41,954 nt of DNA from Patescibacteria group bacterium (GCA_038065755.1 JBBTQJ010000015.1:3218-45171), one strand, 5' to 3'; numbered from the stretch's first letter, positions 1,072 through 37,583 are shown. The notes: generated by a model from the sequence alone, not told the origin. A program made the numbers and translations.

Positions 1072-3198
1072 TTAAGCCAACGCCGGGGTTTTATATTCTT
1101 TTCTTTCTTTATATTCTTGTTTTTTACCTTTATTCCATTGCTGAACAGGCCTTATATATCCCACAATTCTTGTATAAACTTCGCAGGGCTGTTTTATGGC
1201 GCATTTCGGGCATTCAAAATGTTCGCCGTCTAAATATCCGTGAGAGGGGCAAATAGAAAAGGTTGGGGTTAGGGTAATATACGGCAAATGAAATTTTTCA
1301 AATGCTCTTTTGACTAAATTTTTTGCCATTTGAGGGTCTGAAATTCTCTCTCCTAAAAATAAATGCAAAACTGTTCCTCCTGTATATTTTGTTTGGAGTT
1401 CGTCTTGTAATTTTAGCGCCTCAAAGGGGTCTGTGGTATAGTCAACCGGCAAATGAGTTGAATTTGTATAATAAGGAATTTCTTTTGTGCCAGCTGTAAT
1501 AATATCCGGATATTTTTCTCTGTCGGTTCTTGCCTGGCGATAACTTGTTCCTTCGCCGGGCGTTGCCTCTAAATTATACATATTGCCTGTTTTTTCCTGG
1601 AATTTAACCATTTTTTCTCTCATAAAATCTAATACTTCTAAAGCAAGTTTTTTTCCGTTTTTTGAAGATATATCCTCTCCTAAAAAATTTAAAAGGGCTT
1701 CGTTCATCCCTATTAATCCAATTGTTGAAAAATGATTTCCAAAATAAGAATTTCTAATGCTTTTAACGCCGTCTAAATAGTGCCTTGAGAAAGGATAAAG
1801 TCCTTTTTCTATAAAGTTTTCCAGGGCTTTTCTTTTTATTTCTAAAGACTCTTTTGCCAAGTCCATTAAATGCCCCAGTCTTTCAAAAAAATCTTTTTTA
1901 GTTTTAGAAAGATATCCGATTCTCGGCAAATTCATAGTCACCACTCCAATACTGCCGGTAAGGGGCTGTGAACCAAATAATCCGCCACCCCTCATTAAAA
2001 GTTCTTTGTTGTTCAAACGAAGCCGACAACACATACTTCTGAAATCTTCCGGCTTCATATCTGACTGCAAAAAATTTGAAAAATAATTTATTCCGTATTT
2101 GGCCGTTGCTTCCCACATTGCGTTAAGGTTGGGATTGTCCCATTCAAAATCTTTTGTGACAGAAACGGTAGGGATTGGAAAAGTAAAAGGCCTTCCCTTG
2201 GAATCTCCCTCCATTAAACCTTCATAAAAGGCCTTAATAAACATATCCATTTCCGGCTGAAATTCTCCGTAGGTTTCATTTTGCGGTTCTCCTCCGATTA
2301 TTACAGGCTGTTTTGCTAAAAACGATGGCGGTTTAATATCTAAAGAAACGTTTAAAAAGGGTGTTTGAAAACCAACGCGGGTTGGCACCATACAGTTGTA
2401 CAAAAATTCCTGCATTGCCTGTTTTACTTGTTTATAAGTTAAATTATCGTATCTGATAAACGGGGCCAAAAGGGTGTCAAAATTAGAAACAGCGTTGGCT
2501 CCGGCTGTTTCTCCCTGAAGAGTATATAAAACATTTACCAGCTGGCCTAAGGCGGTTCTTAAATGTTTTGGCGGCTTGCATTCTATTTTTCCCATTACTC
2601 CGCCAAAGCCCCTTCTTAAAAAATCATATAAATCCCAGCCGGCGCAATACGGCGAAAGAAGTTCTAAGTTATGAATATGAAAATCCTCGTTAAAGGCCGC
2701 CTCTCTTACTTCTTTGGGATAAATTTTGTTAAGCCAGTATTTTTTTGAAACATAAGAGCCGACATACTGATTTAATCCCTGCAAAGAAAAGGTCATATTG
2801 GCGTTTTCAGCAATCTGCCAGTCAAGTTCTTTTAAATAACTGTCAATTTTATCTGAAGATTCGTCAGAGATTACTCCCAGTTCTCTGATTTTTCTTCTTT
2901 GATCTCTATATAATATATAGGCTCTAGCCGTATCAACCAGGCCTTCTAAAATTAAAACCTCTTCCACGATATCTTGGATTTGCTCAACAGTGGGAATTTC
3001 TTCTTTTTTAAAGCGCCTGTTTAAAATTTCTATTGCTTTCTCTGATGCTTTTCTGGATTTTATACCATCGCCCTGTCCAGCGGCTGTAATTGCCTTAAAA
3101 ACAGCATCTGTGATTTTTTGCTGCAAAAACTCAACAATAGAGCCGTCTCTTTTTTGGACTTTTGTTATATGGTTTGTTATTTTATTTGCTTTTTTCAT
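1072..3198 (-). CDS. nrdD: Class III (anaerobic) ribonucleoside-triphosphate reductase with N-terminal ATP cone
   Basis: VQKRDG ATP cone, SMCCRL finger loop, CPSHGY...CPKC zinc site, RIVGY glycyl radical motif. Confidence 0.96.
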   Translation of the reverse strand: MKKANKITNHITKVQKRDGSIVEFLQQKITDAVFKAITAAGQGDGIKSRKASEKAIEILNRRFKKEEIPTVEQIQDIVEEVLILEGLVDTARAYILYRDQRRKIRELGVISDESSDKIDSYLKELDWQIAENANMTFSLQGLNQYVGSYVSKKYWLNKIYPKEVREAAFNEDFHIHNLELLSPYCAGWDLYDFLRRGFGGVMGKIECKPPKHLRTALGQLVNVLYTLQGETAGANAVSNFDTLLAPFIRYDNLTYKQVKQAMQEFLYNCMVPTRVGFQTPFLNVSLDIKPPSFLAKQPVIIGGEPQNETYGEFQPEMDMFIKAFYEGLMEGDSKGRPFTFPIPTVSVTKDFEWDNPNLNAMWEATAKYGINYFSNFLQSDMKPEDFRSMCCRLRLNNKELLMRGGGLFGSQPLTGSIGVVTMNLPRIGYLSKTKKDFFERLGHLMDLAKESLEIKRKALENFIEKGLYPFSRHYLDGVKSIRNSYFGNHFSTIGLIGMNEALLNFLGEDISSKNGKKLALEVLDFMREKMVKFQEKTGNMYNLEATPGEGTSYRQARTDREKYPDIITAGTKEIPYYTNSTHLPVDYTTDPFEALKLQDELQTKYTGGTVLHLFLGERISDPQMAKNLVKRAFEKFHLPYITLTPTFSICPSHGYLDGEHFECPKCAIKQPCEVYTRIVGYIRPVQQWNKGKKQEYKERKEYKTPALA

Positions 3199-4252: not shown

Positions 4253-4293
4253 AAAATTTTTAATTTAAATTTTAATTATTATTTTCGACCTTT

Positions 4294-4453
4294 AGACCTG
4301 TTGCGAAATAAGAATTCGCGCCTAAATTTGAAATTTTGGCTGCAAAATCATAAAATCTCGTCGGCTTATACTCTGTATAAACCTCCTCGATTTTCTGATT
4401 TTTCTCTCAAAATTTCTGCATTTCGCTTGCTAATTTTATTTCGCAACAGGTCT
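4294..4453 (-). mobile_element. 160-bp MITE-like palindromic element, copy 1 (about 19-bp terminal inverted repeats AGACCTGTTGCGAAATAA)
   Basis: TIRs read directly; reverse-complement homolog of 14993..15152; overlaps the ftsZ stop codon; flanks ttt/tat. Confidence 0.85.
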
Positions 4454-5394
4454 TATGCGATTTTTGTGGCGATGACTGTGATTTTTATTTCTCCTTTTTT
4501 TAAATTTTCGTCTTTTACAGCCCCAAAAATTATCTGGGCTTTTTGGTCAACATTTTTTGTGATAATGCCGGCGGCTTCTTGAATTTCGTTTAAAGTAATA
4601 TCATTTCCAAAAACGCTGAATAAAACCCCCTTTGCCCCTTTAATGGAAAAATCCAGCAAGGGAGAGTTTATGGCTATGTTGGCGGCTTCGGTTGCCCTGT
4701 TTTGGCCGCTGGCCCTGCCTACCCCGAAAAGTGTTCTGCCTGAATCCTTCATAATAGAAGCCACCGAAGCAAAATCAATATTTATAATGCCTGGCACCAA
4801 AATCAAATCTGTAATGCCCTGCGCAGCTTCTGCTAAAACCTGATCGCAAATCCAAAAGGCATTTGATACGGTTGTCTTTTCGTCTATTATTTTTAAGAGC
4901 TTGTCGTTTGATATAACCAACAAAGAATCAACTTTTCCGTTTAAATTTTCTATTGCCTCCTCTGCTATTTTTTTTCTTTCTTCGCCCTCAAAAGAAAAGG
5001 GAGTTGTTACCACAGCTATGGTTAAAATGCCAAGATTTTTTGAAAGCTCGGCAATAATCGGCGAAGCGCCGCTACCGGTTCCCCCACCCATTCCGCAGGT
5101 GACAAAAACCATATCTGCTCCTTTTATAATTTTTAATAATTCTTTTTTGCTTTCCTCTGCTGCTTTTTTTCCTAAATCTACATCCATTCCAGTGCCAAGC
5201 CCCCTGGTAATTTCTTCGCCGATTAAAACTTTGTTTTGAGTTTTACAAAAATGAAGAGCCTGATTGTCTGTGTTCACGGCAATTAATTCCACCTGCTGAA
5301 TATTTAATTTTGCCTGCCTGCGCAGGCAGGCCATTCGGGAAACGGTATTAGAACCCGAGCCCCCCACTCCAATAACTTTAATTTTGGGATCCAT
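4453..5394 (-). CDS. ftsZ: Cell division protein FtsZ (lacks C-terminal linker and peptide)
   Basis: IKVIGVGG, AVNTD, GMGGGTGSG tubulin signature, INIDFA; ends at ITVIATKIA. Confidence 0.97.
   Translation of the reverse strand: MDPKIKVIGVGGSGSNTVSRMACLRRQAKLNIQQVELIAVNTDNQALHFCKTQNKVLIGEEITRGLGTGMDVDLGKKAAEESKKELLKIIKGADMVFVTCGMGGGTGSGASPIIAELSKNLGILTIAVVTTPFSFEGEERKKIAEEAIENLNGKVDSLLVISNDKLLKIIDEKTTVSNAFWICDQVLAEAAQGITDLILVPGIINIDFASVASIMKDSGRTLFGVGRASGQNRATEAANIAINSPLLDFSIKGAKGVLFSVFGNDITLNEIQEAAGIITKNVDQKAQIIFGAVKDENLKKGEIKITVIATKIA
5312..5331. repeat. Perfect 20-bp palindrome in frame within ftsZ
   Basis: gcctgcctgc|gcaggcaggc, encoding (A)CLRRQA. Confidence 0.85.
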
Positions 5395-5399
5395 ATAAT

Positions 5400-6704
5400 T
5401 TATGGAAGGAAGTGCTTAAATATTTTTTTAATTTTTAACCACCACCCCCTTGCAAATCCCAGTATACCTTCTTCGTCGTCAAAATCAACCCCTCCCAAAG
5501 CCAGCCCGGCAACAGTGGCCAAAGAAGGATCTTCTTTCAGGCCGTAAATGCCTTTTGGAATCCCAATTTCACAAGGAAGCTTTAAGGCAATTTTTGTAAG
5601 CTCTTTTATTTTTGGCAAATTTGCTCCTCCGCCCGTTAAAACTATTCCGCCTGGCAATAATTCTTGTCTTCCGATTTTTTTCAATTCTTTTTGAATCAAA
5701 TCTAAAATTTCAGAAACCCTCGGTTCTATAATTCCCACCAGGCTTTTCTTTGTAAAAAAAATTGAAGATGATTCATCAAAAATTTCTATTTTATTTGAAA
5801 CGCCTTTTAGTCCGCGCTCTTTTTTTTCGCCGGCTGTTTTATTTTCTTGATTAACTTCCGGTTTTCCATTTATGGAATACTTAATTTGGCGGCGCAATAA
5901 ATTATCTGCTTTTAAAAGCAGGCATAAGCCATATTGCTTTTTTATGCTTTCTGCAATAGAAACATCTGTGCGCAGCCCAATGGCTATATCGTTGGTAATA
6001 TTGGCTGATCCAATTGGAAAAACAGCAAGATGTATTAATTCCCCTTCTTCAAAAACCGCCAAGCTTGTAGTATTTGCCCCAAAATCAATTAAAGCAACCC
6101 CCAGCTCTTTTTGCTGGGGAGTTAAAACAGCTTTTGCTGCGGCCAGGGGAGAGGGTATTACGTCATTAATTTGTATTTTTGAATTTAAAACAGCCTGAGT
6201 AAGGTTTGTAAAATACTGCTGGAAATAACAGAGCAAAAGCACTTTTGCTTCCAATCGTATGCCCATTAGATCTAACGGTTGTTTTATTCCTTTTTGATCA
6301 TCAATAATAAATTCTCTGGGAAAAACGTCCAGCACCTCTTCGTTATGGGGGATATTTATGGCTTTTGTGGCCTGTAAAACCCTTTCTATATCTTCTTTAG
6401 AAATTCTTTGGTCTGCCCTGGAAACAGAAATTATTCCGTCAGAAGGAACAACATAAATATGACTGCCTCCGATATTTACAAAAACAGAGGTGATTTTTCT
6501 ATTGCATTCTTTTTCAGCTTTTGCTATTGCTAGCTGGACATTTTTTGAAGTTTCTTCCACGTTAAAAACCGCTCCTTTTCTTAATCCAAAAGAAGGAACC
6601 TCAACATATGCCAAAACTTCCCATTCTTTTCCTTTTTTCTGGGCAACCAAACATTTGACAACGCTTGTCCCAATGTCTAAGCCTGCAACTATTTGACCAT
6701 TCAT
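5400..6704 (-). CDS. ftsA: Cell division protein FtsA
   Basis: GLDIGTS, LIDFGANTT, ITNDIAIGL, GIVLTGGGA; directly upstream of ftsZ. Confidence 0.96.
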   Translation of the reverse strand: MNGQIVAGLDIGTSVVKCLVAQKKGKEWEVLAYVEVPSFGLRKGAVFNVEETSKNVQLAIAKAEKECNRKITSVFVNIGGSHIYVVPSDGIISVSRADQRISKEDIERVLQATKAINIPHNEEVLDVFPREFIIDDQKGIKQPLDLMGIRLEAKVLLLCYFQQYFTNLTQAVLNSKIQINDVIPSPLAAAKAVLTPQQKELGVALIDFGANTTSLAVFEEGELIHLAVFPIGSANITNDIAIGLRTDVSIAESIKKQYGLCLLLKADNLLRRQIKYSINGKPEVNQENKTAGEKKERGLKGVSNKIEIFDESSSIFFTKKSLVGIIEPRVSEILDLIQKELKKIGRQELLPGGIVLTGGGANLPKIKELTKIALKLPCEIGIPKGIYGLKEDPSLATVAGLALGGVDFDDEEGILGFARGWWLKIKKIFKHFLP

Positions 6705-6726
6705 AAAAAATTTTTGGTTTTAAATT

Positions 6727-7155
6727 TCAAATTACCGACGATAAATAATGCTCTTCTTTTTTTTCCATTATTTCTGCTTCTTTTTTTGTTTTTTCGTGGT
6801 TATATTCTAAAAGATGCAAAATCCCGTGTGTTAAAACTTTTGTTAATTCTTCTTTAATGCTGGTTTTATATTTTTTAGCGTTTTCTTTTACAAATGCGGG
6901 GCAAATAATCACCTCGCCCAAATCATCTTTTAAAACTTGAAGCTTAAAACTTGAGACCCCGCCAAAAGACAAAACATCTGTCGCTTTATTTTTTTTGCGA
7001 TATTTTTTATTAAGCTTTCTTATCTCGCCAGTTGGAACAAAAACAACAGACAAGTTTTTCTTTTCTTTATTTTCGCCTTTTAATACTTTTTTTGCAACAC
7101 CTGTGAAAAACTTTTTATCCACAGCGAGGCCCGCAAGATTATTTATCTCAATCAT
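6727..7155 (-). CDS. ybeY: rRNA maturation endoribonuclease YbeY
   Basis: LNKKYR...ATDVLSF, LGEVIIC, HGILHLLEYNH. Confidence 0.95.
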   Translation of the reverse strand: MIEINNLAGLAVDKKFFTGVAKKVLKGENKEKKNLSVVFVPTGEIRKLNKKYRKKNKATDVLSFGGVSSFKLQVLKDDLGEVIICPAFVKENAKKYKTSIKEELTKVLTHGILHLLEYNHEKTKKEAEIMEKKEEHYLSSVI

Positions 7156-7206
7156 TTCCTTATTTTAACTTAATTTTACTTTTTTTCAAAATTCACGCGA
7201 TAAAAT

Positions 7207-7237
7207 AAAAATAGGCAAGAGCCCATTTCCTATTTTT
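7207..7237 (-). terminator. Terminator-like hairpin after the TA operon
   Basis: aaaaatagg-N13-cctattttt. Confidence 0.45.
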
Positions 7238-7255
7238 GTATCCAGATTTTAATTA

Positions 7256-7597
7256 TCAATTATTTAAAATTCTACTTTTCACAATAGTTATCAAGTCGTG
7301 CTCTGATTTATAAATTCCGTGGCGAGAAAATACTATTATTTTATAACAATCCATATTAATCATTTGAAAGACAACGCGGTATCCTTTTGATTTGCCTACA
7401 CTTTCTCTCATCGGAACAACCCTGCCCTTATAAATTTTACATTCGCCAAAACCGGGGAAAGCTTCTATGGCTGGTGTTTCTCTTAACCCCTTCAAACAAA
7501 AAAGACGCTCCCATGCCTCCAATGACTCGTGAGGTGCTGGAAAGCGTCGCAGGTCTTTTAAGTCTTTTTCAATGTCTTTATGCCGAATAGTCTTCAT
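7256..7597 (-). CDS. RelE/ParE-superfamily toxin (likely start MKTIRHK at 7597)
   Basis: IYKGRV...GKSKGYRVVF resembles the RelE/HigB GKSGGxRVIY region; starts 4 bp after the antitoxin stop. Confidence 0.7.
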   Translation of the reverse strand: MKTIRHKDIEKDLKDLRRFPAPHESLEAWERLFCLKGLRETPAIEAFPGFGECKIYKGRVVPMRESVGKSKGYRVVFQMINMDCYKIIVFSRHGIYKSEHDLITIVKSRILNN

Positions 7598-7601
7598 GCG
7601 C

Positions 7602-8099
7602 TTACATATTGGCCATTTCTCCGTATTTATTGCGATAATACGATAGATTATAGTCGATAACGCTATTTGGCTTTGTTGCAATCCATGGCGCTTCTCCATG
7701 GCTTGCATTTTTCATCTCGGCGCCCGAAAATTTTTCCCATTTATTGGCGATTTCTTCCATCATTAATAATTCCTCTTTTGAAAATAAATTTATATCAAAT
7801 TCTTTCAACGACTCAATGTGCTGTTGGTCATTATAACCAGAACCAATTTTTCTTTTAGTAATTTTAATATCTTTACCGTTCATCTCTTTTAATATTTTCT
7901 CTGCCATCCTTGGAATTGGGCCATTATCAAATCTTAAATATTCGTCTCCTGACACGGGCTTCCCGTATTTTTCAAAATAATCAAAATCCAAAAAGTATAA
8001 TAACTTCATTATTTTTAATTTTCCAAGCGTGCCATTTTTTATCTTATTTGCAAAAAACAAGATAAGATTTTTGTATTTTTTCTCGTTTATTTTAACCAT
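7602..8099 (-). CDS. Panacea-domain (DUF4065/SocA-like) antitoxin
   Basis: KLKIMKLLYFLDF, FDNGPIP, ASHGEAPW motifs; likely start MVKINEKK at 8099. Confidence 0.88.
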   Translation of the reverse strand: MVKINEKKYKNLILFFANKIKNGTLGKLKIMKLLYFLDFDYFEKYGKPVSGDEYLRFDNGPIPRMAEKILKEMNGKDIKITKRKIGSGYNDQQHIESLKEFDINLFSKEELLMMEEIANKWEKFSGAEMKNASHGEAPWIATKPNSVIDYNLSYYRNKYGEMANM

Positions 8100-8309
8100 A
8101 AATTGATTTATTCTATTATAACACAATCAAATAAAAAACCAAGATACTAAAAGATGGGTACTTCCCAAATCGTTTTTAATAATTTTTTGAATACTGCTGT
8201 TTTTATTTCTCAACTAATTTTTAATTTTATACAAAAAGGCTCCTAACCCCCCCTTTTTTTCTCGTACTTGTCAATCGTAACAAACTGCCTTAATTAAAAG
8301 TTTTGAAAT

Positions 8310-8454
8310 AAAAAAACCTCTCAGAAGATTTCTCTTCGTCGAGGCATACGAAGCATTAAAACTTCGCAGTTACGATCTGTCACAACATAATCTTGCGCTT
8401 ACTTGTTGAACTAACTTTTCGCATTAAATGTCGCCACAAGATGATAATGTTATA
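8310..8454 (-). ncRNA. Candidate structured small RNA or leader
   Basis: Upstream TTGAAA-N18-TAGAAT (8490..8461), three predicted helices including gaaga-GAAA-tcttc, final hairpin followed by a T tract. Confidence 0.4.
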
Positions 8455-8539
8455 GAAAAAATTCTAAATTCATAGAATAAAACATTTCAATTTTGGAAAA
8501 ATTTTCCGAAAGAGCTAAATAACGAAAATAATCCACTTC

Positions 8540-8571
8540 AACCAAAAAGCGGGCTTGCCCGCTTTTTGGTT
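8540..8571. terminator. Intrinsic terminator after yqeY
   Basis: aaccaaaaagcgggc-tt-gcccgctttttggtt, perfect 15-bp arms. Confidence 0.75.
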
Positions 8572-8575
8572 TTTT

Positions 8576-9073
8576 CTATTTAGACAATAATTCTTTTACG
8601 ATTTTTGAAATTTCACCGGAGTCCGCTTTGCCTTTTACTTTTGGCGCCAAGTCTGCCATTATTCTGCCCATATCTTTTATTTCTTTGGCTCCTGTTTTGT
8701 TTATTGATTCTTCAATTATTTTTTTCAATTCTTCTGTTGAAATTTGTTTTGGCAAATATTTTTTTAAAATGGCGACTTCTTTTTTTTCTTTGTCTGCCAG
8801 TTCCTGCCTATTGCCTTTTTCATATAATAAAATTGCGTCTTTTCTTTTTTTTATTTCAGAAGATATAACATCAATTGTTTCTTCATCTGTTAAATAGGAC
8901 TCTTTTATTAAGTCTTCTTCTTTCAACTCCGGCTTTAACTTTGAAATTTTATATCTTTTGTCTTTTTCTTTTGTAATAATAAAGGCCAAAACCATGCGCA
9001 AAACACCGGCAGTAAAATTATCTCCGCCTTTTAGCGCTTCTGTCGCGTCTTTTTGAATTTGTTGTTTTAACAT
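8576..9073 (-). CDS. GatB/YqeY domain protein (likely start MLKQQIQ at 9073)
   Basis: EIKKRKDAILLYEKGNRQELADKE, KYLPKQ, KDMGRIM, KGKADSG; conserved position downstream of rpsU. Confidence 0.92.
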   Translation of the reverse strand: MLKQQIQKDATEALKGGDNFTAGVLRMVLAFIITKEKDKRYKISKLKPELKEEDLIKESYLTDEETIDVISSEIKKRKDAILLYEKGNRQELADKEKKEVAILKKYLPKQISTEELKKIIEESINKTGAKEIKDMGRIMADLAPKVKGKADSGEISKIVKELLSK

Positions 9074-9087
9074 TATTATTTCGGCTT

Positions 9088-9151
9088 CCCCGTTAGAAAC
9101 CTTGCGCAAAAAGAATTTTAATCTATTTTTTATAATTGGTTTCTAACGGGG
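9088..9151. mobile_element. 64-bp miniature inverted-repeat element with 14-bp TIRs and CTT flanking duplication
   Basis: ctt|ccccgttagaaacc...ggtttctaacgggg|ctt; supplies the last codons and TAG of rpsU. Confidence 0.7.
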
Positions 9152-9358
9152 CTTTGCCATTTTTTCTGCCTGCTTTCTTTCTTTTCTTATTTTTTCCCTT
9201 CTTAAAACCGACCTCTTTTTTGACAAAGCTGATTTTTTTCTTTTATGAAATTGTTTGCTTCTTACTTCAAGCAAAACACCGGACTGCCTTACTACTTTGG
9301 TAAATCTGTGAACCAGGCTTTGAGAGGTTTCCCTGTCTTTTTTTCTTACTTCTAACAT
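9143..9358 (-). CDS. rpsU: 30S ribosomal protein bS21
   Basis: 71 aa, basic, EVRKKDRET..SLVHRFTK.V..SGVL.E.R; rpsU-yqeY synteny. Confidence 0.85.
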   Translation of the reverse strand: MLEVRKKDRETSQSLVHRFTKVVRQSGVLLEVRSKQFHKRKKSALSKKRSVLRREKIRKERKQAEKMAKPR

Positions 9359-9364
9359 AAAAAA

Positions 9365-10648
9365 TTATTTTTTAATTTTGTTTTTCATTTCTTTTACGAC
9401 CTTGTCTAATTTAATTTCTTTTTGGGCTCCTGTATCCATATCCCTTAAAGTAACAAAATCTTCCAGCGCTTCTTTCTGCCCAAAAATTAAAACATATTTT
9501 ATTCCCAATTTATTGGCAACTCTTAGCTGCGCCTTTAAAGAATCTTTTGAAAAAGATTCTGCAACCGGAATCTTGGCTTCTCTGAATTCTTCAAAAAGCT
9601 TTAAGCTTTTTCTTTTTGCCAGCTGCCCTAATTGGGCTAAAAATATTTTTGCTTCTTTTTGGTTCTGGGATAATTTTACTTCTCTGGTTTTCATTAAATT
9701 CACAATTCTTTCTGTTCCTCCCGCAACTCCGCAGGCAGGAGTGTCTCTGCCTCCTAAAATTTTTACCAAGCCGTCGTATCTTCCCCCCCCAATTAATGTT
9801 CCTTGGTTTTTTCCCTCTTCGCTGTTTTCTGAAATTTCAAAAACGGTCTTTGTATAATAATCCAGCCCTCTGACCAAGCACGAATTTAAAGTGTATGGCA
9901 GTTGCAGTTCGTCTAAAAATTCCAAAACCTGTTTAAAGTGCAAGTGACAGCTCTCGCATAAATGGTCAATTATCTGAGGAGCCCCTGCTTTTATTCTTTG
10001 GCATTTTTCTTCTTTGCAGTCTAAAATTCTCAAAGAATTTTCTTTCAACCTTCTCTGGCAATCTGAACATAAAGAAGATTTTCTTGACCTGAAGTAGCTT
10101 GTTAATATTTTTTTAAAATAGGGCCTGCATTCTGTATCTCCAATGCTGTTTACCTCTATCATCAAATTTTTAAAACCTAAATCTTTCAAAATATCATAAC
10201 TCATCTGAATAACTTGTCCGTCTATTGAAGGGTTCTTTTCTCCTAGGGCTTCAAATCCAAATTGATAAAATTGTCTGTATCTTCCGGCTTGGGGCCTTTC
10301 ATGCCTAAAACAAGGCCCATAATACCACAACTTTACAGGCTGTGGAAGGTTGTGCATTCCGTGTTCTATATAGCTTCTTGCTATTGACGAGGTATATTCC
10401 GGCCTTAAAGCCACCAAATCTCCGCCCTTTGTCCTAAATGTGTACATCTCTTTTTCAATAATATCTGTTCCTGTCCCCGTGCCTTTTAAAAAAACTTCGG
10501 CCTGCTCTAAAATTGGCGTGTCTATTTTTTGAAACCCATAATAACCGGTAATGTTTTCAACCGATTTTTGAACTTTTTGAAAATAGGGCTGATCTTCGGG
10601 CAAAATGTCGTGCATTCCTGTCAAGCTTTGAATTTTTAATTTATTCAT
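9365..10648 (-). CDS. hisS: Histidine--tRNA ligase
   Basis: GMHDILP, KEMYTF, LRPEYT, FRHERPQAGRYRQFYQ, LVRGLDYY, GGGRYDGL. Confidence 0.98.
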   Translation of the reverse strand: MNKLKIQSLTGMHDILPEDQPYFQKVQKSVENITGYYGFQKIDTPILEQAEVFLKGTGTGTDIIEKEMYTFRTKGGDLVALRPEYTSSIARSYIEHGMHNLPQPVKLWYYGPCFRHERPQAGRYRQFYQFGFEALGEKNPSIDGQVIQMSYDILKDLGFKNLMIEVNSIGDTECRPYFKKILTSYFRSRKSSLCSDCQRRLKENSLRILDCKEEKCQRIKAGAPQIIDHLCESCHLHFKQVLEFLDELQLPYTLNSCLVRGLDYYTKTVFEISENSEEGKNQGTLIGGGRYDGLVKILGGRDTPACGVAGGTERIVNLMKTREVKLSQNQKEAKIFLAQLGQLAKRKSLKLFEEFREAKIPVAESFSKDSLKAQLRVANKLGIKYVLIFGQKEALEDFVTLRDMDTGAQKEIKLDKVVKEMKNKIKK

Positions 10649-10660
10649 TTTGCTTTATTT

Positions 10661-11290
10661 TTAATAAATTGGCGTTTCAATTTGAGATAACGTTGTTATG
10701 GGAAAAATTCTTAAATAGGCTTTGCCGATAATATATTCTTTTGAAAGAATTCCCCATCTTCTTGAATCAAAAGAATATTCTCTATTGTCTCCTAAAACAA
10801 AATATTCATCTGGCCCCAAAACAATATTTATATCACCTTCGGTTTTTAGGTCGTCTGGAAGATATTCTTCGTTCAGCGCAAAACTGTTATTTTTGTAAAT
10901 TGTTATTTTACCTTCTTTAATTTCTACGGTTTCACCGGGCAGGCCTATAATTCTTTTAATAAACCGCTGGGCTGTATCTTTTGGATATTTAAAAACAATT
11001 ATATTTCCCCTTTGTGGCTCTGTAAACCTGTAAGATATTTCGTCAACAATTAAATAATCTCCAGATTTCAAATTGGGCACCATTGATTCTCCCCTTACAA
11101 TAAAAGGCTGAAATAAAAAATAACGTATGGGTAAAACTATTACCAAGGCAATAACAACTATCTGGATAATTTCCCAAACAAACGGCAAAAAACTTTTAAT
11201 GCCTCTTTTACCTATTTTTTTTTCTTCAACTCCTGCCTGTGGGGACAGGCCATTATTTATTTTTGCTTCTTTGTTATTGTCTTCTTCCAT
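10661..11290 (-). CDS. lepB: Signal peptidase I
   Basis: GESMVPNL (Ser), FIKRIIGLPGE (Lys), FVLGDNR..SFDSR.WG. Confidence 0.96.
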   Translation of the reverse strand: MEEDNNKEAKINNGLSPQAGVEEKKIGKRGIKSFLPFVWEIIQIVVIALVIVLPIRYFLFQPFIVRGESMVPNLKSGDYLIVDEISYRFTEPQRGNIIVFKYPKDTAQRFIKRIIGLPGETVEIKEGKITIYKNNSFALNEEYLPDDLKTEGDINIVLGPDEYFVLGDNREYSFDSRRWGILSKEYIIGKAYLRIFPITTLSQIETPIY

Positions 11291-11363
11291 AATTTTCTAT
11301 TCTATTGCGTTTTATTGTATCATATTTTTTTATTATTGCAAGTTTTGGGTTTTATAATAAAAA

Positions 11364-11392
11364 GGAGCTGCAACAAATTTTGCCGCAGCTCC
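11364..11392 (-). terminator. Terminator of the GC-rich insert
   Basis: ggagctgc-N13-gcagctcc, followed on the minus strand by ttttt. Confidence 0.55.
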
Positions 11393-11414
11393 ACAGAAAA
11401 AAGAAGGTTGGCCC

Positions 11415-11690
11415 TTATCGGACGGTTGCGGCGCTTCGCCGCCTATAGCAGGGCTTTTGCCCTGCCACCCCCAGGCCGTTTTCATCACCTCTCTTTTGTC
11501 CCTGCAACTGCAAGAGACGACACACCGCCAGCGGGTGGACCCAAACACAAAACTCCTTTTTCAAAAGACGGCATAGACTCAAAAGAGAGTCTTGCCTTGT
11601 GGCGTTTCCGTTGAATCGAGACGCCATTGCCAGGATGAACACCTTGTGTTCGGGTTTGAGACGGCGGTGTGTGCATATCTTCTTGCACAT
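11415..11690 (-). CDS. Hypothetical small protein, possibly HTH-like (start MCKKICTH)
   Basis: GAAGGA SD-like motif before the ATG at 11690; LCRLLKKEFCVWVHPLAVCRLL resembles an HTH; overlapping alternative ORFs make the call uncertain. Confidence 0.4.
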   Translation of the reverse strand: MCKKICTHRRLKPEHKVFILAMASRFNGNATRQDSLLSLCRLLKKEFCVWVHPLAVCRLLQLQGQKRGDENGLGVAGQKPCYRRRSAATVR

Positions 11691-11872
11691 AGAGATTCCT
11701 TCCACAAACTGGGTTAGAGAAGTTGGAAAAACAGTGCCTCTTCTCTGTTTCCTTGAAAAAGAGAAAAACGCCCGTGTTTCTATATGCACCTCCTTTCTTT
11801 AAAATTGGCTCAGAAAGAAGAAAAAACAGACGCTGATCACCTCCTTTCTTTATATTGAACGTGCTAATTTAG

Positions 11873-11901
11873 AGTATATCTCTTTTAAAAAACAAAGTCA
11901 A
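11873..11901 (-). promoter_or_regulatory. Near-consensus sigma70 promoter of the GC-rich insert
   Basis: TTGACT-N17-TATACT on the minus strand. Confidence 0.65.
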
Positions 11902-11909
11902 ATTTTGTT

Positions 11910-12314
11910 TTAATTTAATAAATAATTGTTTTTAAGTTCTTTATTAATTTTTAAATAATCGGGGATTGTTTTTTCCACCAAATTCCAAAACTTATAAGAA
12001 TGATTGAATTCCGCTAAATGACAAAGCTCGTGAACCACAAGATAGTCAGCCAGTTTATTTTCTAAAAAAACAATTTTATAATTAAAGTTCAAGTTTCTTT
12101 TTTTAGAACAGCTTCCCCACCTTGTCTTTTGATTTTTAATTCTTACTTTGTAAAACTTAAATTTGTAAAACGCGTTAAATTTGCCAATTTTTTCTTCAAC
12201 AATTTTTCGCGCCCGCTCTTTATTTTTTAAAAAATTATTTCTGCCGCCTGCCTTTCTTCGGGGTTTTGACAGACGCCTAATTTTTCTTTTAAAAATTATA
12301 ATATATTTTTTCAT
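11910..12314 (-). CDS. YgjP-like / DUF45 (M48-related) metal-dependent hydrolase
   Basis: KTRWGSCS, YLVVHELCHL.EFNHS.KFW. Confidence 0.9.
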   Translation of the reverse strand: MKKYIIIFKRKIRRLSKPRRKAGGRNNFLKNKERARKIVEEKIGKFNAFYKFKFYKVRIKNQKTRWGSCSKKRNLNFNYKIVFLENKLADYLVVHELCHLAEFNHSYKFWNLVEKTIPDYLKINKELKNNYLLN

Positions 12315-12414
12315 AATATAGATTATTCATCATAAACTAAAAAATGCAAAAAGAAAATTTGAAAAATTTAGATAAAAAGAGTAAATTAAAATAAACAATA
12401 AAATTTAAAATTTT

Positions 12415-12999
12415 ATGATTATAATAATCGGACTGGGGAATCCCGGCGAAAAATTTAAAAACACCAGGCATAATGCCGGCTTTATGGTTTTAGATAGTTT
12501 TGCAAAAGAAAATGATTTTCCGGAATTTAAAATACAAAAAAAATATAACGCCTTAGTTTCAGAGAATATTATAAACGAACAAAAAATTTTGTTGGCAAAG
12601 CCTCAGACTTTTATGAATGAATCGGGAAAAACCGCTAAAAAAATTTTAAAAAATAATAAATCAGAGACAGACAACCTTATCGTAGTTCACGATGATATTG
12701 ATTTGCCTGTTGGAAAAATAAAAATAGTTAAAGAAAGGGGCTCAGCCGGCCACAAAGGAGTAGAATCAATAATCAAAAACATCGGCAATAACGGATTAAT
12801 AAGATTTCGCCTAGGCATAAATCAAAAACAGTACCACCGACCCATCGGTGGTACTAAAAAAGCAAAAGAGGTTGTGCTTGAAAAATTTTCAAAAGACGAA
12901 CAAAAAATAATAGACCAAGCAATCCAAAAAACCGCCAGCGCTCTCAATTTTATAATAAAAAACGGCCTAGAAAAAGCCATGAATGAGTACAATAAATAA
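12415..12999 (+). CDS. pth: Peptidyl-tRNA hydrolase
   Basis: GLGNPG..F.NTRHNAGF, KPQTFMNESG, VVHDDIDL, SAGHKG. Confidence 0.97.
   Translation: MIIIIGLGNPGEKFKNTRHNAGFMVLDSFAKENDFPEFKIQKKYNALVSENIINEQKILLAKPQTFMNESGKTAKKILKNNKSETDNLIVVHDDIDLPVGKIKIVKERGSAGHKGVESIIKNIGNNGLIRFRLGINQKQYHRPIGGTKKAKEVVLEKFSKDEQKIIDQAIQKTASALNFIIKNGLEKAMNEYNK
12830..12855. repeat. 26-bp hairpin (11-bp perfect stem) within pth
   Basis: agtaccaccga-ccca-tcggtggtact, encoding QYHRPIGGT. Confidence 0.8.
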
Positions 13000-14989
13000 A
13001 ATAAATCAGGTGTTGATAGTTAGCATTACCCCCTATTTTTTAGATAAGGAGGTTTTTTGGTTTCAAGAAAATTTAGAAGAAATTTTGCGGGCAAGTAAAA
13101 CCCAGTCCTTTTTTCAGGACAATATTATTTTTTTAAAAACCGGCTATGATTGTAATTTCTCTAATTTATTGAGAAAAATAGACGAAATGGGATATGAAAG
13201 GGTTTTTAAAATTCAAGAGCAGGGGGAGTTTTCGCAAAGAGGCGGAGTTATTGATATTTTTCCCGTCAACTTAATCCATGCAATAAGGTTGGATTTCTTG
13301 GGAAACAAAATTGACTCAATAAAACTGCTTGACACAGAAATAAAAGACGAAAAAAGGGCGAGAGATATTTTAAAAAACAGGCTAAAATCGCAAAAAATCT
13401 TTTCTGATATTAAAAATTTAAAACCGGGAGATTATTTAACGCACTTAGACCACGGAATTGGAAAGTTTGTCGGGTTTGAAGAATTTTCAATTTCAAAATC
13501 TAAATTTCAAAACAATTTTAAAATTAAAATTTCAAATGACGAAAAACAAAAATATTATGTTTTAGAATATGCCAGCGAAGACAAATTATATGTGCCACTG
13601 GGTTTAGAAAGAAAACTTTCAAGATATGTGGGGTTTGCAGACCCCAAGATTTCTCGGCTGGGATCTAATTTGTGGCAAAAAACAAAAAGAAAAATAAAAG
13701 AAGGGGTAGAAAAATTAGCCAAAGAACTTTTGGATTTATACGCAAAAAAAGAAATTGCGAAAAGAACTCCTTATTTGCAAGACAAAGAATTAGAAGAACA
13801 ATTACGGTCTTCTTTTATATACGAAGAAACACCAGACCAAACGCAGGCCATTGAAGATATTAAAAAAGACCTAATCAAAGAAACGCCAATGGACAGGATT
13901 GTTTGCGGAGATGTTGGTTTTGGAAAAACAGAAATAGCCATAAGAACCGCCCTGCTGGCCGTTGCAAACAACAGGCAGACAGCCCTAATATGCCCCACAA
14001 CAATCTTGGCCAACCAGCATTTTAATAACTTTAAAGAAAGATTTAAAAAATTTCCTGTCCAAGTAGCCATGCTCTCAAGACTTCAGAGTAAAAAAGAGCA
14101 AAAAAAAATAATTGAAAATTTAAAAGGGGGGAAAATAGATATTATTATCGGCACGCACAGAATTTTGTCTTCTGACGTAGGGTTTAAAAATTTGCAATTA
14201 TTGATTATTGACGATGAACAGCGATTTGGAGTAAAACAAAAAGAAAAATTAAGACAGCTTAAATTGTCTTTAGATGTTTTAAGCCTGTCGGCCACTCCTA
14301 TCCCAAGAACCATATATCTAGCGCTTTCTTCTTTTAAAAATATAAGTCTTATTCAAACTCCGCCCAAAGGCAGAATAGCCATAAACACGCAGGTTTTGCC
14401 GTATAATTCAAAAATTATAAAAGAAGCGATAAAATTTGAACTAAAAAGGAATGGCCAGGTTTATTTTTTGCACAACAGAGTCCAAACCATTGAAAAAACA
14501 AAACAGGAATTGCAAAAATTAATTCCCGAAGCAAAAATAGCCGCAATCCACGGAAAGATGCCAGAAAAACAATTGATAAAAACAATGAGTGGCTTTTCTC
14601 GTCGGGACATTGATGTTTTGGTGGCCACTACAATTATTGAAAACGGGTTAGATTTTCCTAATGTAAACACTATAATAATAGAAAACGCTTTAAAACTGGG
14701 CCTTTCTCAGGCGCACCAGATAAGGGGAAGAGTCGGCAGATCAAATATAGAAAGTTTTGCTTATATGTTTTTTTATAAAAAAAATATTACGCCCTTGGCC
14801 AAAGAAAGATTAAAAACATTGGAAGACGAAAAAGAATTGGGGGCTGGTTACAGAATTGCAATTAAAGATTTGGAATTAAGAGGGGCCGGCAATATTTTGG
14901 GCAAAGAGCAATCGGGCGCCATAAACAAAATCGGGCTTAATTTATATTGCCAAGTTCTTTCTGAAGCAGTTGAAAAACTAAGGCAATAA
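12983..14989 (+). CDS. mfd: Transcription-repair coupling factor, compact form
   Basis: GEFSQRGGVIDIFP (UvrB-homology), HLDHGIG (CarD/RID), GDVGFGKTE, DDEQRFG, SATPIPR, QIRGRVGR, DLELRGAGNILG (TRG); no C-terminal TRCF domain. Confidence 0.93.
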   Translation: MSTINKINQVLIVSITPYFLDKEVFWFQENLEEILRASKTQSFFQDNIIFLKTGYDCNFSNLLRKIDEMGYERVFKIQEQGEFSQRGGVIDIFPVNLIHAIRLDFLGNKIDSIKLLDTEIKDEKRARDILKNRLKSQKIFSDIKNLKPGDYLTHLDHGIGKFVGFEEFSISKSKFQNNFKIKISNDEKQKYYVLEYASEDKLYVPLGLERKLSRYVGFADPKISRLGSNLWQKTKRKIKEGVEKLAKELLDLYAKKEIAKRTPYLQDKELEEQLRSSFIYEETPDQTQAIEDIKKDLIKETPMDRIVCGDVGFGKTEIAIRTALLAVANNRQTALICPTTILANQHFNNFKERFKKFPVQVAMLSRLQSKKEQKKIIENLKGGKIDIIIGTHRILSSDVGFKNLQLLIIDDEQRFGVKQKEKLRQLKLSLDVLSLSATPIPRTIYLALSSFKNISLIQTPPKGRIAINTQVLPYNSKIIKEAIKFELKRNGQVYFLHNRVQTIEKTKQELQKLIPEAKIAAIHGKMPEKQLIKTMSGFSRRDIDVLVATTIIENGLDFPNVNTIIIENALKLGLSQAHQIRGRVGRSNIESFAYMFFYKKNITPLAKERLKTLEDEKELGAGYRIAIKDLELRGAGNILGKEQSGAINKIGLNLYCQVLSEAVEKLRQ

Positions 14990-14992
14990 AAT

Positions 14993-15152
14993 AGACCTGT
15001 TGCGAAATAAGATTAGCAAGCGAAATAAAGCAATTTTTAGCGAAAATTTGGAAAAACGAGGAGGTTTATACAGGGTATAAGCCGACGAGTTTTTATAAAT
15101 TTGCAGCAAAAATTGCAAATTGCAGCGCGAATTCTTATTTCGCAACAGGTCT
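14993..15152 (+). mobile_element. 160-bp MITE-like palindromic element, copy 2
   Basis: aat|agacctgttgcgaaataag...cttatttcgcaacaggtct|aat; perfect 19-bp TIR, AAT duplication, 3 bp after the mfd stop. Confidence 0.88.
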
Positions 15153-15219
15153 AATATATAAAAATTGCAAATGCCACGCTTATTCTGATATAGTATAGTT
15201 AAACAGAAATAAAAATTTT

Positions 15220-17247
15220 ATGGATTTAATTATAGTGGAAAGCCCCACAAAATCTAAAACCCTGCAATCGTTTTTAGGAAAAGACTATAAAGTTTTGTCG
15301 TCTTTTGGACATGTAAGAGATTTGCCAAAAGGAGAACTTGGAGTAGACGTTGAAAATAACTTTGAACCAAAATATATTGTGCCCACAAAAGCCAAAAAAA
15401 CAGTTTCTTTGCTAAAAAAAGAGTCTTCATCGGCTGACAGCACCATTTTGGCAACCGACGAAGACAGAGAGGGTGAAGCAATTGCCTGGCACTTAGCAGA
15501 AGCATTAAAATTGAAAAACCCAAAAAGAATTGTCTTTCACGAAATAACCAAAGAAGCCATTCAAAAAGCATTAAAAAATCCAAGAAGCATTGATATAAAT
15601 ATGGTAAACGCCCAGCAGGCAAGAAGAATTTTAGACAGGATTGTTGGCTATAAGCTGTCTCCTTTTTTATGGAAAAAGGTGGCAAAGGGCCTGTCGGCAG
15701 GAAGGGTGCAATCTGTGGCTGTAAAATTTGTTGTTGACAGAGAAAGAGAAATAGAAAAATTTATACCGCAAGAATATTGGAGCGTTGAGGCTGCGCTTGA
15801 AAAAAATAAAAAAGAATTTACCGCTTTTTTGGCCAAAAAAAATAAAGAGCCAATAACAAGGCTTGAAATAAAAAACAAAAAAGAGGCAGATAAAATTTTA
15901 GAGGATTTAAAAAATGCAAATTATGTAATAGAAAATGTTGAAAAAAAAGAAACCAAAAAAAATCCTTTTCCGCCCTTTACAACAAGCGCCTTGCAGCAAT
16001 CTGCTTGGCAGAGATTTCATTTCCCAGCTAAAACAACAATGCAAACGGCCCAGCGGCTTTACGAACAGGGGTTTATCAGCTATCACAGGACAGATTCTTT
16101 AAATTTATCTGAAACATCTTTGTTTGCCGCTAAAAAATTTATTGCAGAAAGCTTCGGCATTAATTATTGGGCGGGAAAATTAATAAGGTATAAAGCTAAT
16201 AAAAACGCCCAAGAAGCCCATGAGGCCATAAGGCCGACCATTGCCAGCAGAACACCAGAATCATTAAAAAATACAGATTCAAGGCAGTTGAAATTATATA
16301 CTATTATATGGCAAAGATTTATTGCCTGCCAAATGTCGCCGGCTTTATTTGATTCTGTTTCTTCTGATATTAAAGCTAATAATTATACATTCCGCGCAAA
16401 CGGTCAAACATTAAAATTTGATGGCTTCTTAAAGATCTACCCGGTAAAGTTTGAAGAAAAAGAGCTACCCGGTTTAGAAAAAAATGATAATTTAAACCTT
16501 ATAAAATTAACTCCTTCTCAACATTTTACAGAGCCCCCCGCAAGATATACCGAAGCAAGTTTAATTAAAATTTTAGAAAAAAACGGCATAGGCAGGCCCT
16601 CTACATATGCCCCCACCCTGTCTACCATACAGGAAAGAAATTATGTTGCAAAGAATGACCAAAAAAGATTTTTCCCAAATGAAATGGGAATAATAGTCAA
16701 TGATATTTTGGCGCAAAATTTTCCGCAAATAGTTGATATTGATTTTACGGCTAAAATGGAAAAAGAATTAGACGAAATAGCTGAAAAAAAAGACACTTGG
16801 ATAAAAACATGCAAAGATTTTTATGTTCCCTTTGCCAAAAATTTAGAAGAAAAATACAAAGAAGTAAAAAAAGAAAACACAGACATCAAAACAGATAAAA
16901 TTTGCCCGAGGTGCGCGAAACCAATGGTAGAAAAACTGGGAAGATTCGGCAGGTTTTACGCATGCGCCGGTTTTCCGGATTGCAAATACACAGAATCTTT
17001 AGAGTCGGTTGATTTGGGAATTATTTGTCCAAGGTGCAAGGTCGGTAAAATAGTTGTCAGAAAAAGCAAAAGAGGAAAAATTTTTTACGGCTGCGACCTT
17101 TATCCAAAATGCGATTTTGCCTTATGGGACAAGCCCGTAAATGAATTTTGCAAAAAATGCGGTTCTATTTTGGTAGAAACAAAAAATAAGCAAATAAAGT
17201 GCGGTAATAAAGAATGCAAACAATCAACGCCATCAGAAAAATTATAG
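15220..17247 (+). CDS. topA: DNA topoisomerase I
   Basis: IVESPTK, GHVRDL, ATDEDREGE, SAGRVQS, SYHRTDS, QEAHEAIRPT, GIGRPSTY, C-terminal zinc ribbons. Confidence 0.98.
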   Translation: MDLIIVESPTKSKTLQSFLGKDYKVLSSFGHVRDLPKGELGVDVENNFEPKYIVPTKAKKTVSLLKKESSSADSTILATDEDREGEAIAWHLAEALKLKNPKRIVFHEITKEAIQKALKNPRSIDINMVNAQQARRILDRIVGYKLSPFLWKKVAKGLSAGRVQSVAVKFVVDREREIEKFIPQEYWSVEAALEKNKKEFTAFLAKKNKEPITRLEIKNKKEADKILEDLKNANYVIENVEKKETKKNPFPPFTTSALQQSAWQRFHFPAKTTMQTAQRLYEQGFISYHRTDSLNLSETSLFAAKKFIAESFGINYWAGKLIRYKANKNAQEAHEAIRPTIASRTPESLKNTDSRQLKLYTIIWQRFIACQMSPALFDSVSSDIKANNYTFRANGQTLKFDGFLKIYPVKFEEKELPGLEKNDNLNLIKLTPSQHFTEPPARYTEASLIKILEKNGIGRPSTYAPTLSTIQERNYVAKNDQKRFFPNEMGIIVNDILAQNFPQIVDIDFTAKMEKELDEIAEKKDTWIKTCKDFYVPFAKNLEEKYKEVKKENTDIKTDKICPRCAKPMVEKLGRFGRFYACAGFPDCKYTESLESVDLGIICPRCKVGKIVVRKSKRGKIFYGCDLYPKCDFALWDKPVNEFCKKCGSILVETKNKQIKCGNKECKQSTPSEKL

Positions 17248-36549: not shown

Positions 36550-37581
36550 TTATTCCGGCTGCGGTTCATCTTCCCTTCTTTTTTCTAAAAATTCTTTAAG
36601 AAACTCATAAACAATGGCAAACACCGGCACTGCAAAAATTGTGCCCAAAAAACCAAATACCTGCGCCCCTATTAACAATGAAATTAAAACTAAAACCGGA
36701 GGCAGGTTTATCATCTTTTTCATTAGCACCGGGGTTAAAAGATTATTTTCAATAGTTTGAATAGCGGCTATAGAAATTAAAACATAAAATAAGGTTATCC
36801 AAGAATTTGACGAAACAACAATAAACACAATTAATAAAATACTGGTTACCAATGGGCCTATATATGGCACAAAATTTAAAACTCCGGAAAGCAAGGCAAG
36901 CATAAAGGCGTATTTTACTGAAAACATATAAAAAATAATAAAAGAAGCCACTCCGATAAAAAAACAGGATAAAATTCTTGCGCCAAACCATCCTGCCACT
37001 TTTTTTTGAGACCTTTCAAAAAGCGCGATTATATATTCTTCGTATTTTTTGGGAGCTAAAAGGACCAAAACCTTTTCCGTCCCTTTTTCTTCTAATGACA
37101 GAAAAAATGCAAGAGCTAAAATAAAAACGGCCGAAGAAACTCCGCCAAAAAAAGCGGCTACGGCCGAAATGATGCCGGTGGAACTTTTTTCCAGGCCTTT
37201 TGTTAAAATTTTTGTGAAGTCGCTGAAGATATGCGCCAAGTCAACTCCGAATTGTTTTAAAAGGGGGTCTATTTTTTCAAGATAATCGGGCAAGTATTGT
37301 GAAAATTGTTTCAATTCAAAGATAAAAATGGGTGCTGTCAAATAGATTAAAAGCCCCAAAAAACCAAAAAAAGACAAATATATCATAGCCATAGCTATAA
37401 TTTTAGGTATGCGGATCCACCTTAAAAAATTGATCGCCGGTTCCAGCAAAACAGAAATAATAAGGGCAAAAAAGAACCAAAAAACTATGTCTTTGGCTAA
37501 ATAAATAATATATAAAACAAAAATTGCTATAAAAATTTTAATTATAGTTTTTATTGAAATATCTAACGTGTGTTCGCTCAT
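36550..37581 (-). CDS. AI-2E family transporter
   Basis: Multi-pass; NFVPYIGP, QTIENNLLTP, L.P...LISLLIG...G.LG..FAVP. Confidence 0.92.
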   Translation of the reverse strand: MSEHTLDISIKTIIKIFIAIFVLYIIYLAKDIVFWFFFALIISVLLEPAINFLRWIRIPKIIAMAMIYLSFFGFLGLLIYLTAPIFIFELKQFSQYLPDYLEKIDPLLKQFGVDLAHIFSDFTKILTKGLEKSSTGIISAVAAFFGGVSSAVFILALAFFLSLEEKGTEKVLVLLAPKKYEEYIIALFERSQKKVAGWFGARILSCFFIGVASFIIFYMFSVKYAFMLALLSGVLNFVPYIGPLVTSILLIVFIVVSSNSWITLFYVLISIAAIQTIENNLLTPVLMKKMINLPPVLVLISLLIGAQVFGFLGTIFAVPVFAIVYEFLKEFLEKRREDEPQPE

Positions 37582-37583
37582 AA

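Follow-up and report, generated by a model that had tools for sequence, protein, structure and literature searches.

Two copies of a palindromic element in the window

The window analysed here is a stretch of 41,954 nucleotides from a Patescibacteria group bacterium (GCA_038065755.1, JBBTQJ010000015.1:3218-45171), and it contains two palindromic elements of 160 nt, one directly behind ftsZ (copy A) and the other between mfd and topA (copy B). [quoted passage not shown] Our probability for this reading is about 0.85, which covers the identity as a MITE and not the role of its core. Copies were scored with two covariance models, R1, built from 26 copies, and R2, which covers the central 87 nt (the core). 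The features are listed below.

4294..4453, minus strand: copy A, 160 nt long, with no gap to the ftsZ stop codon; R1 score 167 bits
14993..15152, plus strand: copy B, 160 nt, between the mfd stop codon and the topA promoter region; R1 score 172.7 bits
4436..4453, minus strand: 5' terminal inverted repeat of copy A; partner at 4294-4311
14993..15010, plus strand: 5' terminal inverted repeat of copy B (AGACCTGTTGCGAAATAA); partner at 15135-15152
4330..4416, minus strand: core hairpin of copy A; R2 score 99.1 bits
15030..15116, plus strand: core hairpin of copy B, with GAGCGA/GCAGC and GAGGA/GACGA loops and an apical stem; R2 score 99.8 bits
4454..4456, minus strand: left flank ATA of copy A, overlapping the ftsZ stop codon; the right flank, 4291-4293, is AAA (2 of 3 positions match)
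14990..14992, plus strand: target-site duplication AAT of copy B; second copy at 15153-15155
4453..5394, minus strand: ftsZ, context gene (Pfam FtsZ)
12983..14989, plus strand: gene for an mfd/TRCF-type helicase, context gene (Pfam)
15220..17247, plus strand: topA, topoisomerase I, context gene (Pfam)

The first-pass annotation had described two palindromes of the same length with shared termini, and both points were confirmed. The two 160-nt copies are 88% identical to each other, and each has an exact 18-nt inverted repeat with AGACCTGTTGCGAAATAA at both ends, which matched the window four times against 0.05 expected. The estimate of about five compensatory pairs was exact: 10 of the 19 differences between the copies form five pairs that are changed on both sides and still paired. 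The remaining differences are one A-T to G-T change and eight positions outside the shared pairs, and none breaks a shared pair. The GAGGA/GACGA loops and the apical stem, which had been called invariant, are identical in the two copies. The proximity to stop codons was also correct, in that the ftsZ TAA (4453-4455) shares one base with copy A and the mfd stop codon (14987-14989) lies 3 nt before copy B, and both copies are oriented like the adjoining ftsZ or mfd, as had been stated. As RNA, copies A and B fold into a single long hairpin of -64.6 and -68.4 kcal/mol (z -10.2 and -10.5), and none of 200 shuffled sequences folded as well as either of them. As single-stranded DNA (ssDNA), copy B gave -42.8 kcal/mol for the sense strand and -37.3 kcal/mol for the antisense strand. 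Promoter and terminator scans of the two copies found no site common to both and no terminator-like site; a sigma-70-like site at 15165-15194 lies downstream of copy B, before topA. Because the element recurs 15 more times in the genome, the pattern in the window is far beyond chance.

The element is dispersed in the genome and among related genomes

The genome comprises 682 kb in 38 contigs with a G+C content of 0.32-0.39. A profile search with nhmmer found 15 full copies, 12 with ends of the window type and three with the same middle and other ends, together with two incomplete ones, of which one is cut by a contig end and the other is a relic of about 36 nt. The strand of a copy was unambiguous, with about 160 bits against 45 on the other strand. 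A recent move is indicated by two copies that lie on different contigs with different flanks and yet are 100% identical over 158 nt. Two copies sit at contig ends; the repeats evidently break the assembly, because one full copy starts a contig. Across a set of 133 non-redundant copies, which was also used for the flank analysis below, the length of the element was 157-170 nt. No open reading frame (ORF) confined to the element was found.

BLAST detected the element in 9 of the 24 genomes searched within the GTDB family, and in none of 16 from other families. Model R1 matched 47 of 79 genomes of the family, in 10 of 16 genera, and the matches per genome ranged from none to at least 37 when both strands were counted. 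With the core model R2, 11 of 147 sampled genomes from other families of the order were matched. A degenerate pattern of the core loops matched at least 119 stretches in a species-level genome collection; since this pattern fixes the loop letters, it shows distribution and not conservation. The titles of the pattern matches listed name Paceibacterota, Falkow-, Kerfeld-, Moran-, Magasanik-, Berkel-, Taylor-, Staskawicz-, Lloyd-, Sungii- and Vogelbacteria and metagenome-assembled genomes (MAGs) labelled Saccharibacteria, and four of the records listed carry other depositor-given labels. In viral contigs the same search gave a single match, a chance one with no hairpin. Literature searches on Patescibacteria, also known as the candidate phyla radiation (CPR), found no description of such an element.

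The element is flanked by 3-bp target duplications

In the flanks of the 133 copies a direct repeat of 3 bp is seen, in most cases AAT or ATT and in others AGT, ACT or TTT, with A following it. This A at +4 was present in 38 of 48 copies, so that the target preference reaches past the 3-bp duplication. Exact abutting 3-bp repeats were found in 44 of the 133 copies, as compared with 15.2 +/- 3.3 (maximum 27) in 2000 random re-pairings of left and right flanks. Among 70 copies assigned to the IS5-type ends by a rough motif rule, the longest abutting repeat measured 3 bp in 33 copies, 2 bp in four and 1 bp in five; the other 28 had no such repeat, and repeats longer than 3 bp did not occur. This bimodal distribution fits a fixed 3-bp duplication with later decay, and a 3-bp duplication rule is known for bacterial IS5 subgroups. 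The left flanks are often TATAAT-like. The copies hug stop codons because the A/T-rich A-N-T(A) target contains TAA and the spacers are very short. In a sister genome of the same genus, the element was missing at all three of the orthologous sites examined.

Hairpins other than the MITE were seen at the same spacers, namely one of 48 nt after ftsZ in the sister genome G001 (L041) and a palindrome of about 85 nt after mfd in the mfd-topA spacer of genome G017 (L035:1790-1970); several kinds of hairpin insertion seem to turn over there. In several copies (on C18, C1, C31, C2 and at C20:43879), 5-11 nt separate the element's 3' end (...CAGGTYT) from a downstream ATG start codon. A ribosome-binding site could then be provided, or masked, by AGGT in the terminal repeat.

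An insertion sequence with matching ends encodes an IS5-type transposase

An insertion sequence (IS) of about 1.1 kb with the ends AGACCTGTCCCTAAATAA and the duplication ACT/ACT was found at locus L094 of a family genome; its length includes an inserted mini-MITE of 81 bp. The 273-aa ORF of this IS matched DDE_Tnp_4 (PF13359, 1.1e-25) and DDE_Tnp_1 (PF01609, 4e-11), and its score against NCBIfam IS5_4 was 53.5 bits, below the cut-off of 140. Seven further IS copies of about 1.0 kb with the same ends were found on metagenome contigs, with exact 3-bp duplications in four of the seven. The MITE copies of one relative are identical to the IS ends over all 18 terminal nt, and the terminal repeats of the window copies match them at 15 of 18 positions, as read by eye. 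The likeness to IS5-family ends, suggested in the first-pass annotation, was right, since the terminal repeats match an IS with a DDE_Tnp_4/IS5-type transposase. From these ends we infer that the partner transposase or a close variant of it moves the window copies. The transposase would bind the 18-19-bp ends and make the staggered 3-bp cut at the A-N-T target. A folded intermediate in mobilisation, as had been suggested, need not be assumed, because a conventional DDE transposase working in trans is indicated by the 3-bp duplications and by inverted repeats of the IS type.

The mini-MITE is palindromic and occurs twice at L094 (1094-1173 and 2058-2138) with the terminal repeats of the IS type and with no core. 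Since mini-MITEs that have these ends but lack the core exist, movement as such does not depend on the core.

Several observations weigh against the identification as a MITE moved by this transposase. The duplication at copy A is imperfect (ATA/AAA), the 28 IS5-type copies mentioned above have no abutting repeat, and the spacers of the sister genome are too diverged for a clean boundary of excision or insertion to be seen. The transposase ORF at L094 is interrupted by one of the mini-MITEs, and the second abuts the right end of the IS. Genes matching DDE_Tnp_1 (PF01609) or DDE_Tnp_4 (PF13359) were not found in the window's genome, self-BLAST of this genome turned up no IS candidate in the form of a long repeat of high identity, and a strong DDE_Tnp_4 match was present in only 1 of the 79 family genomes. 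The Pfam search for DDE_Tnp_1 in these 79 genomes gave matches in 14. By a hand tally, the MITE was present in 11 of these 14 and in 36 of the 65 negative ones, an association too weak to use. Two of the DDE_Tnp_1 loci, L080 and L081, were examined and set aside, as they had no likeness to the element.

One core is carried under several types of ends

The three odd copies in the window's genome have ends resembling those of a 1.02-kb IS982-type element (ACTGTGAATTACGAAAT...) found in three relatives. The ORF of the latter matched PF13612 (6e-26) and scored 112 bits against NCBIfam IS982, below the cut-off of 130. In another genome, the ends of a third group of copies are those of a third IS, whose 326-aa ORF is a DDE_Tnp_1 protein, IS5-like below the cut-offs, and three of five copies of this type have 5-bp duplications. 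Further end types were found on MITEs with no partner IS detected. The central hairpin is common to the MITEs with all of these ends, and the total length is about 160 nt. The IS loci were searched for the core and showed no likeness to it, and the hairpin of about 120 nt between the MITE ends is not derived from the IS. Its central 87 nt or so are conserved as a module: the stems covary, the purine-rich internal loops are invariant and a U.G pair is conserved.

The fold of the interior is maintained

The earlier proposal that the fold, and not only the ends, is maintained was borne out by covarying inner stems and conserved loops in multi-genome alignments. In a MAFFT alignment, which was fitted to no structure, 34 of the 42 predicted pairs have changed on both sides and are still paired. 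In 48 model-aligned copies from about 30 genomes, an alignment that leans towards the model, 95.7% of the cells pair, as compared with 74.9% after shuffling, and both sides have changed in 37 of the 42 pairs. The 48 copies gave a covariation score of 0.587, against 0.19 for shuffled alignments and at most 0.094 for slid partners. Matching transposase sites could account only for the outer 18 bp, so that they leave the covariation of the inner stems unexplained.

The unpaired parts are purine-rich and conserved on both sides of the hairpin, with GAGCGA opposite GCAGC and CGAGGAGG opposite CCGACGAG. From the sequence, the latter two may be read as two tandem G.A pairs around a G-C pair; tandem sheared G.A pairs are the general background to this reading. 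In loop variants (alignment rows L032, L069 and L074), G is replaced by A on both strands and the middle pair is changed from G-C to C-G. A U.G pair is present in 97 of the 133 copies, and G.U outnumbers A.C (118:38 and 197:74). The sense strand is the more stable one in 130 of the 133 copies, with a mean of -66.9 kcal/mol against -53.5 kcal/mol for the complement. The sense-strand fold and the excess of G.U indicate that one strand is shaped to fold on its own.

Comparison with Rfam, as the first-pass annotation had suggested, gave no family at the gathering score, only a tRNA being matched in the window. At E values up to 10, the best Rfam matches were plant miRNA-precursor hairpins, with 24 bits against a threshold of 211. 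A hairpin ribozyme and a kink-turn were considered for the loops from the sequence, and no tool supported either of them.

Orientation to genes and copies inside RNA genes

Using crude ORF calls in the 133-copy set, 49 copies between co-directional ORFs were sense and 35 antisense. When both ORFs lay within 300 nt, the ratio was 38:21 (binomial p 0.036, with copies that are not independent). In the window's genome, also by crude calls, 13 copies had an orientable ORF on one side or both, and 10 of these were sense (7 of the 10 between co-directional ORFs). A dedicated role as a 3'-untranslated region (UTR) RNA, which had been proposed for the element, is not supported by so weak an orientation bias. 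GC skew was tried as a proxy for the direction of replication and rejected, since it tracks the coding strand and gave no consistent orientation (of 16 copies, about 9 pointed in one direction and 7 in the opposite one, several with a skew near zero).

Copies were also found in genes for structural RNAs. Among 30 23S rRNA loci of the family, the element lies inside the gene in three (L353, L354 and L360), two sense and one antisense, and just 3' of the gene in four more. In the 23S rRNA of genome G010 (L353:2046-2203), the 160-nt insert sits in a helix's apical loop (model positions 274-300); this rRNA has a second, unrelated insert of about 60 nt at position 312. In a Moranbacteria-labelled MAG (L277), the element lies inside the gene for the bacterial RNase P RNA on the strand opposite to the RNA. 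The RNase P RNA match occupies 2342-2876 (-), 535 nt for a model of 367 positions, and the core of the element 2609-2695 (+), within a full-length copy with the ends GAGCCTGTC.... The window's genome has no assembled 23S rRNA. Many short, ORF-less, unexplained insertions have been reported in CPR rRNA genes, with RNase III-cut intervening sequences as the suggested explanation (PMC11270868). The element may account for some of these insertions.

Alternative explanations and the role of the core

The first-pass annotation had called the element a structured mobile RNA or ssDNA element. It proved to be both structured and mobile; it is not an RNA gene, and belongs to a MITE family instead. A free-standing structured RNA, either a 3'-UTR element or a small RNA, with a site-specific function and with mobility secondary or absent, would agree with the strong covariation, with the conserved, strand-specific loops and fold, and with the sense position of both window copies after stop codons and of 10 of 13 copies in this genome. 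We hold it to be very improbable, since it is opposed by the mixed orientation (49:35, or 38:21 with ORFs within 300 nt), by the 3-bp target duplications and IS-type ends, by the absence of the element from all three orthologous sites of the sister species, by the variation from none to at least 37 matches within the family, and by the failure to find an Rfam match or a promoter or terminator signal common to both copies. The least probable of the explanations is an element of the REP/REPIN or IS200/IS605 type that is moved as an ssDNA hairpin by a Y1 (HUH) transposase. In favour of this, the element forms one long hairpin with one strand folding better, also as ssDNA (-42.8 against -37.3 kcal/mol), and the genome has a 216-aa ORF with an HUH-like motif (C1:13944-14594, minus strand) that looks Y1/RAYT-like by eye. 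However, Y1 elements make no target duplication, and here the duplication is fixed at 3 bp, the ends are those of DDE insertion sequences, and the orientation does not track the local GC skew. The Y1-like ORF, itself recognised by eye, and the relic copy at C1:12007-12042 lie 2 kb apart.

For the role of the core within a MITE, the order of preference is an action as RNA, then one at the level of DNA, then no selection on the fold. The favoured role, tentatively and at somewhat below even odds, is that of an RNA module that keeps insertions harmless. After landing in packed, co-transcribed DNA, the transcript of the element would fold into a compact hairpin of roughly 70 bp. This hairpin could be tolerated as an extension of a helix, or be excised by RNase III as in 23S intervening sequences and Correia elements; in either case the insertion would do no harm and the element would persist. 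Two facts speak against an action as RNA, namely that 35 of the 84 copies between co-directional ORFs are antisense, and that two of the copies in RNA genes, one of the three in 23S and the one in RNase P, run opposite to the RNA. The second choice, which we regard as rather unlikely, is that the core acts as folded DNA in transposition, with a hairpin or cruciform that joins the ends or recruits a host factor. The core is conserved whatever its orientation to genes, which fits selection on propagation and not on the insertion site, and the sense strand also folds as ssDNA. However, DDE transposases of the IS5/Harbinger type act on double-stranded ends, a cruciform needs no better strand and yet one is better in 130 of 133 copies, and the 81-bp core-less MITE with the same ends argues that mobility does not require the core. 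Improbable in our view is a MITE with no selection on the fold, whose palindromy would come from its origin, by inverted duplication or re-copying of the arms, and from two matching transposase sites. The fit of both ends to one transposase could explain the covariation of the outer 18-19 bp, the end variants do track the IS variants (for example GTCCCTAAATAA in the IS and the MITEs of one genus), and identical rows and kinship inflate the covariation counts. On the other hand, the inner stems are not transposase sites and covary across families of the order, and re-copying of the arms would erase the mismatched loops, whereas GAGGA/GACGA, GAGCGA/GCAGC and the U.G pair (97 of 133) persist. The loops that do vary change from G to A on both strands with the middle pair flipped from G-C to C-G, and at least three unrelated types of ends enclose one and the same core.

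A broader proposal built on the action as RNA is more doubtful. According to it, the core of about 87 nt would be a structured RNA module spread across many Patescibacteria lineages, a purine-loop hairpin recognised by RNase III or another RNA-binding factor that rides on a MITE chassis from at least three IS groups and is the source of part of the unexplained CPR 23S insertions and of the one in the RNase P RNA. If this is true, a mobile hairpin for safe landing lets transposons colonise the essential RNA genes of minimal genomes. Patescibacteria have tiny, packed genomes that are thought to be poor in mobile elements, and here one MITE superfamily reaches dozens of copies per 0.7 Mb. Its conserved, covarying and strand-specific interior under unrelated ends is unlike the usual MITE, in which only the ends matter, and suggests that the cargo hairpin itself is under selection. 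The copies in rRNA and RNase P RNA genes offer a testable origin for the short CPR rRNA insertions described in PMC11270868. MITE repeats of this kind can also be mistaken for RNA genes.

Comparison with known systems

In behaviour the element comes closest to Correia, ERIC and RUP, in the relation of transposase and MITE to Harbinger/Tourist, and in its rRNA-resident copies to 23S intervening sequences; what is distinctive against all of these is the shared, strand-specific core. Correia RNA is cut by RNase III, and ERIC shows compensatory changes. Like the present MITE, Correia/NEMIS of Neisseria, ERIC/IRU of enterobacteria and RUP of pneumococcus are intergenic elements of 100-160 bp with no ORF, with terminal inverted repeats and with a short A/T duplication, and bacterial MITEs are often co-transcribed and affect mRNA stability (PMC3184786). 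No sequence relation to Correia, ERIC or RUP was found, although the sequences were not directly compared. In contrast to these elements, which duplicate TA, the duplication here is 3-bp A-N-T and a partner IS is identified, and the interior is a conserved module under different ends, with a motif found across many lineages of the phylum.

Harbinger elements of the canonical type duplicate 3 bp of the target and mobilise MITEs (PMC12730594, PMC2836001). IS5/PIF-Harbinger elements and Tourist-type MITEs such as mPing resemble the present system in the DDE_Tnp_4 transposase and in a 3-bp duplication with a preference that extends beyond it. In Tourist-type MITEs, as here, only the terminal repeats are common with the autonomous element (PMC2836001, PMC12730594). 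The size of the partner IS (about 1 kb, 273 aa) is like that of the ISL2 group of IS5 elements in PMC3196728. Unlike Harbinger, the partner is a bacterial single-ORF IS with an NCBIfam IS5 score below the cut-off, and the duplication is A-N-T and not TWA.

The rRNA-resident copies resemble 23S rRNA intervening sequences, which are hairpin insertions of 100-200 nt in helix loops. However, most MITE copies lie outside rRNA genes and those of the window are not in 23S, and cleavage of the MITE by RNase III is only proposed. REP/REPIN sequences with their RAYT genes are, like the MITE, dispersed intergenic hairpins, and the genome has the Y1-like gene, recognised by eye. REPs differ in being short (20-40 nt, against 160 nt here), with no target duplication and no ends of a DDE-type IS.

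Other repeats and the copy on contig C25

The copy at C25:2921-3083 (L012:1472-1634) has G+C-rich flanks that look non-coding. These flanks had suggested an RNA gene around the copy, a candidate that was dropped, as there was no Rfam match within 3 kb. Other repeats of about 200 bp with 91-99% identity, unrelated to the MITE, are present in the genome at C33:4701-4912 and C38:3122-3333. Contig C1 carries two further repeat pairs unrelated to the MITE, 39535-39734 with 37534-37733 (inverted) and 41462-41648 with 35700-35885, which bracket about 6 kb.

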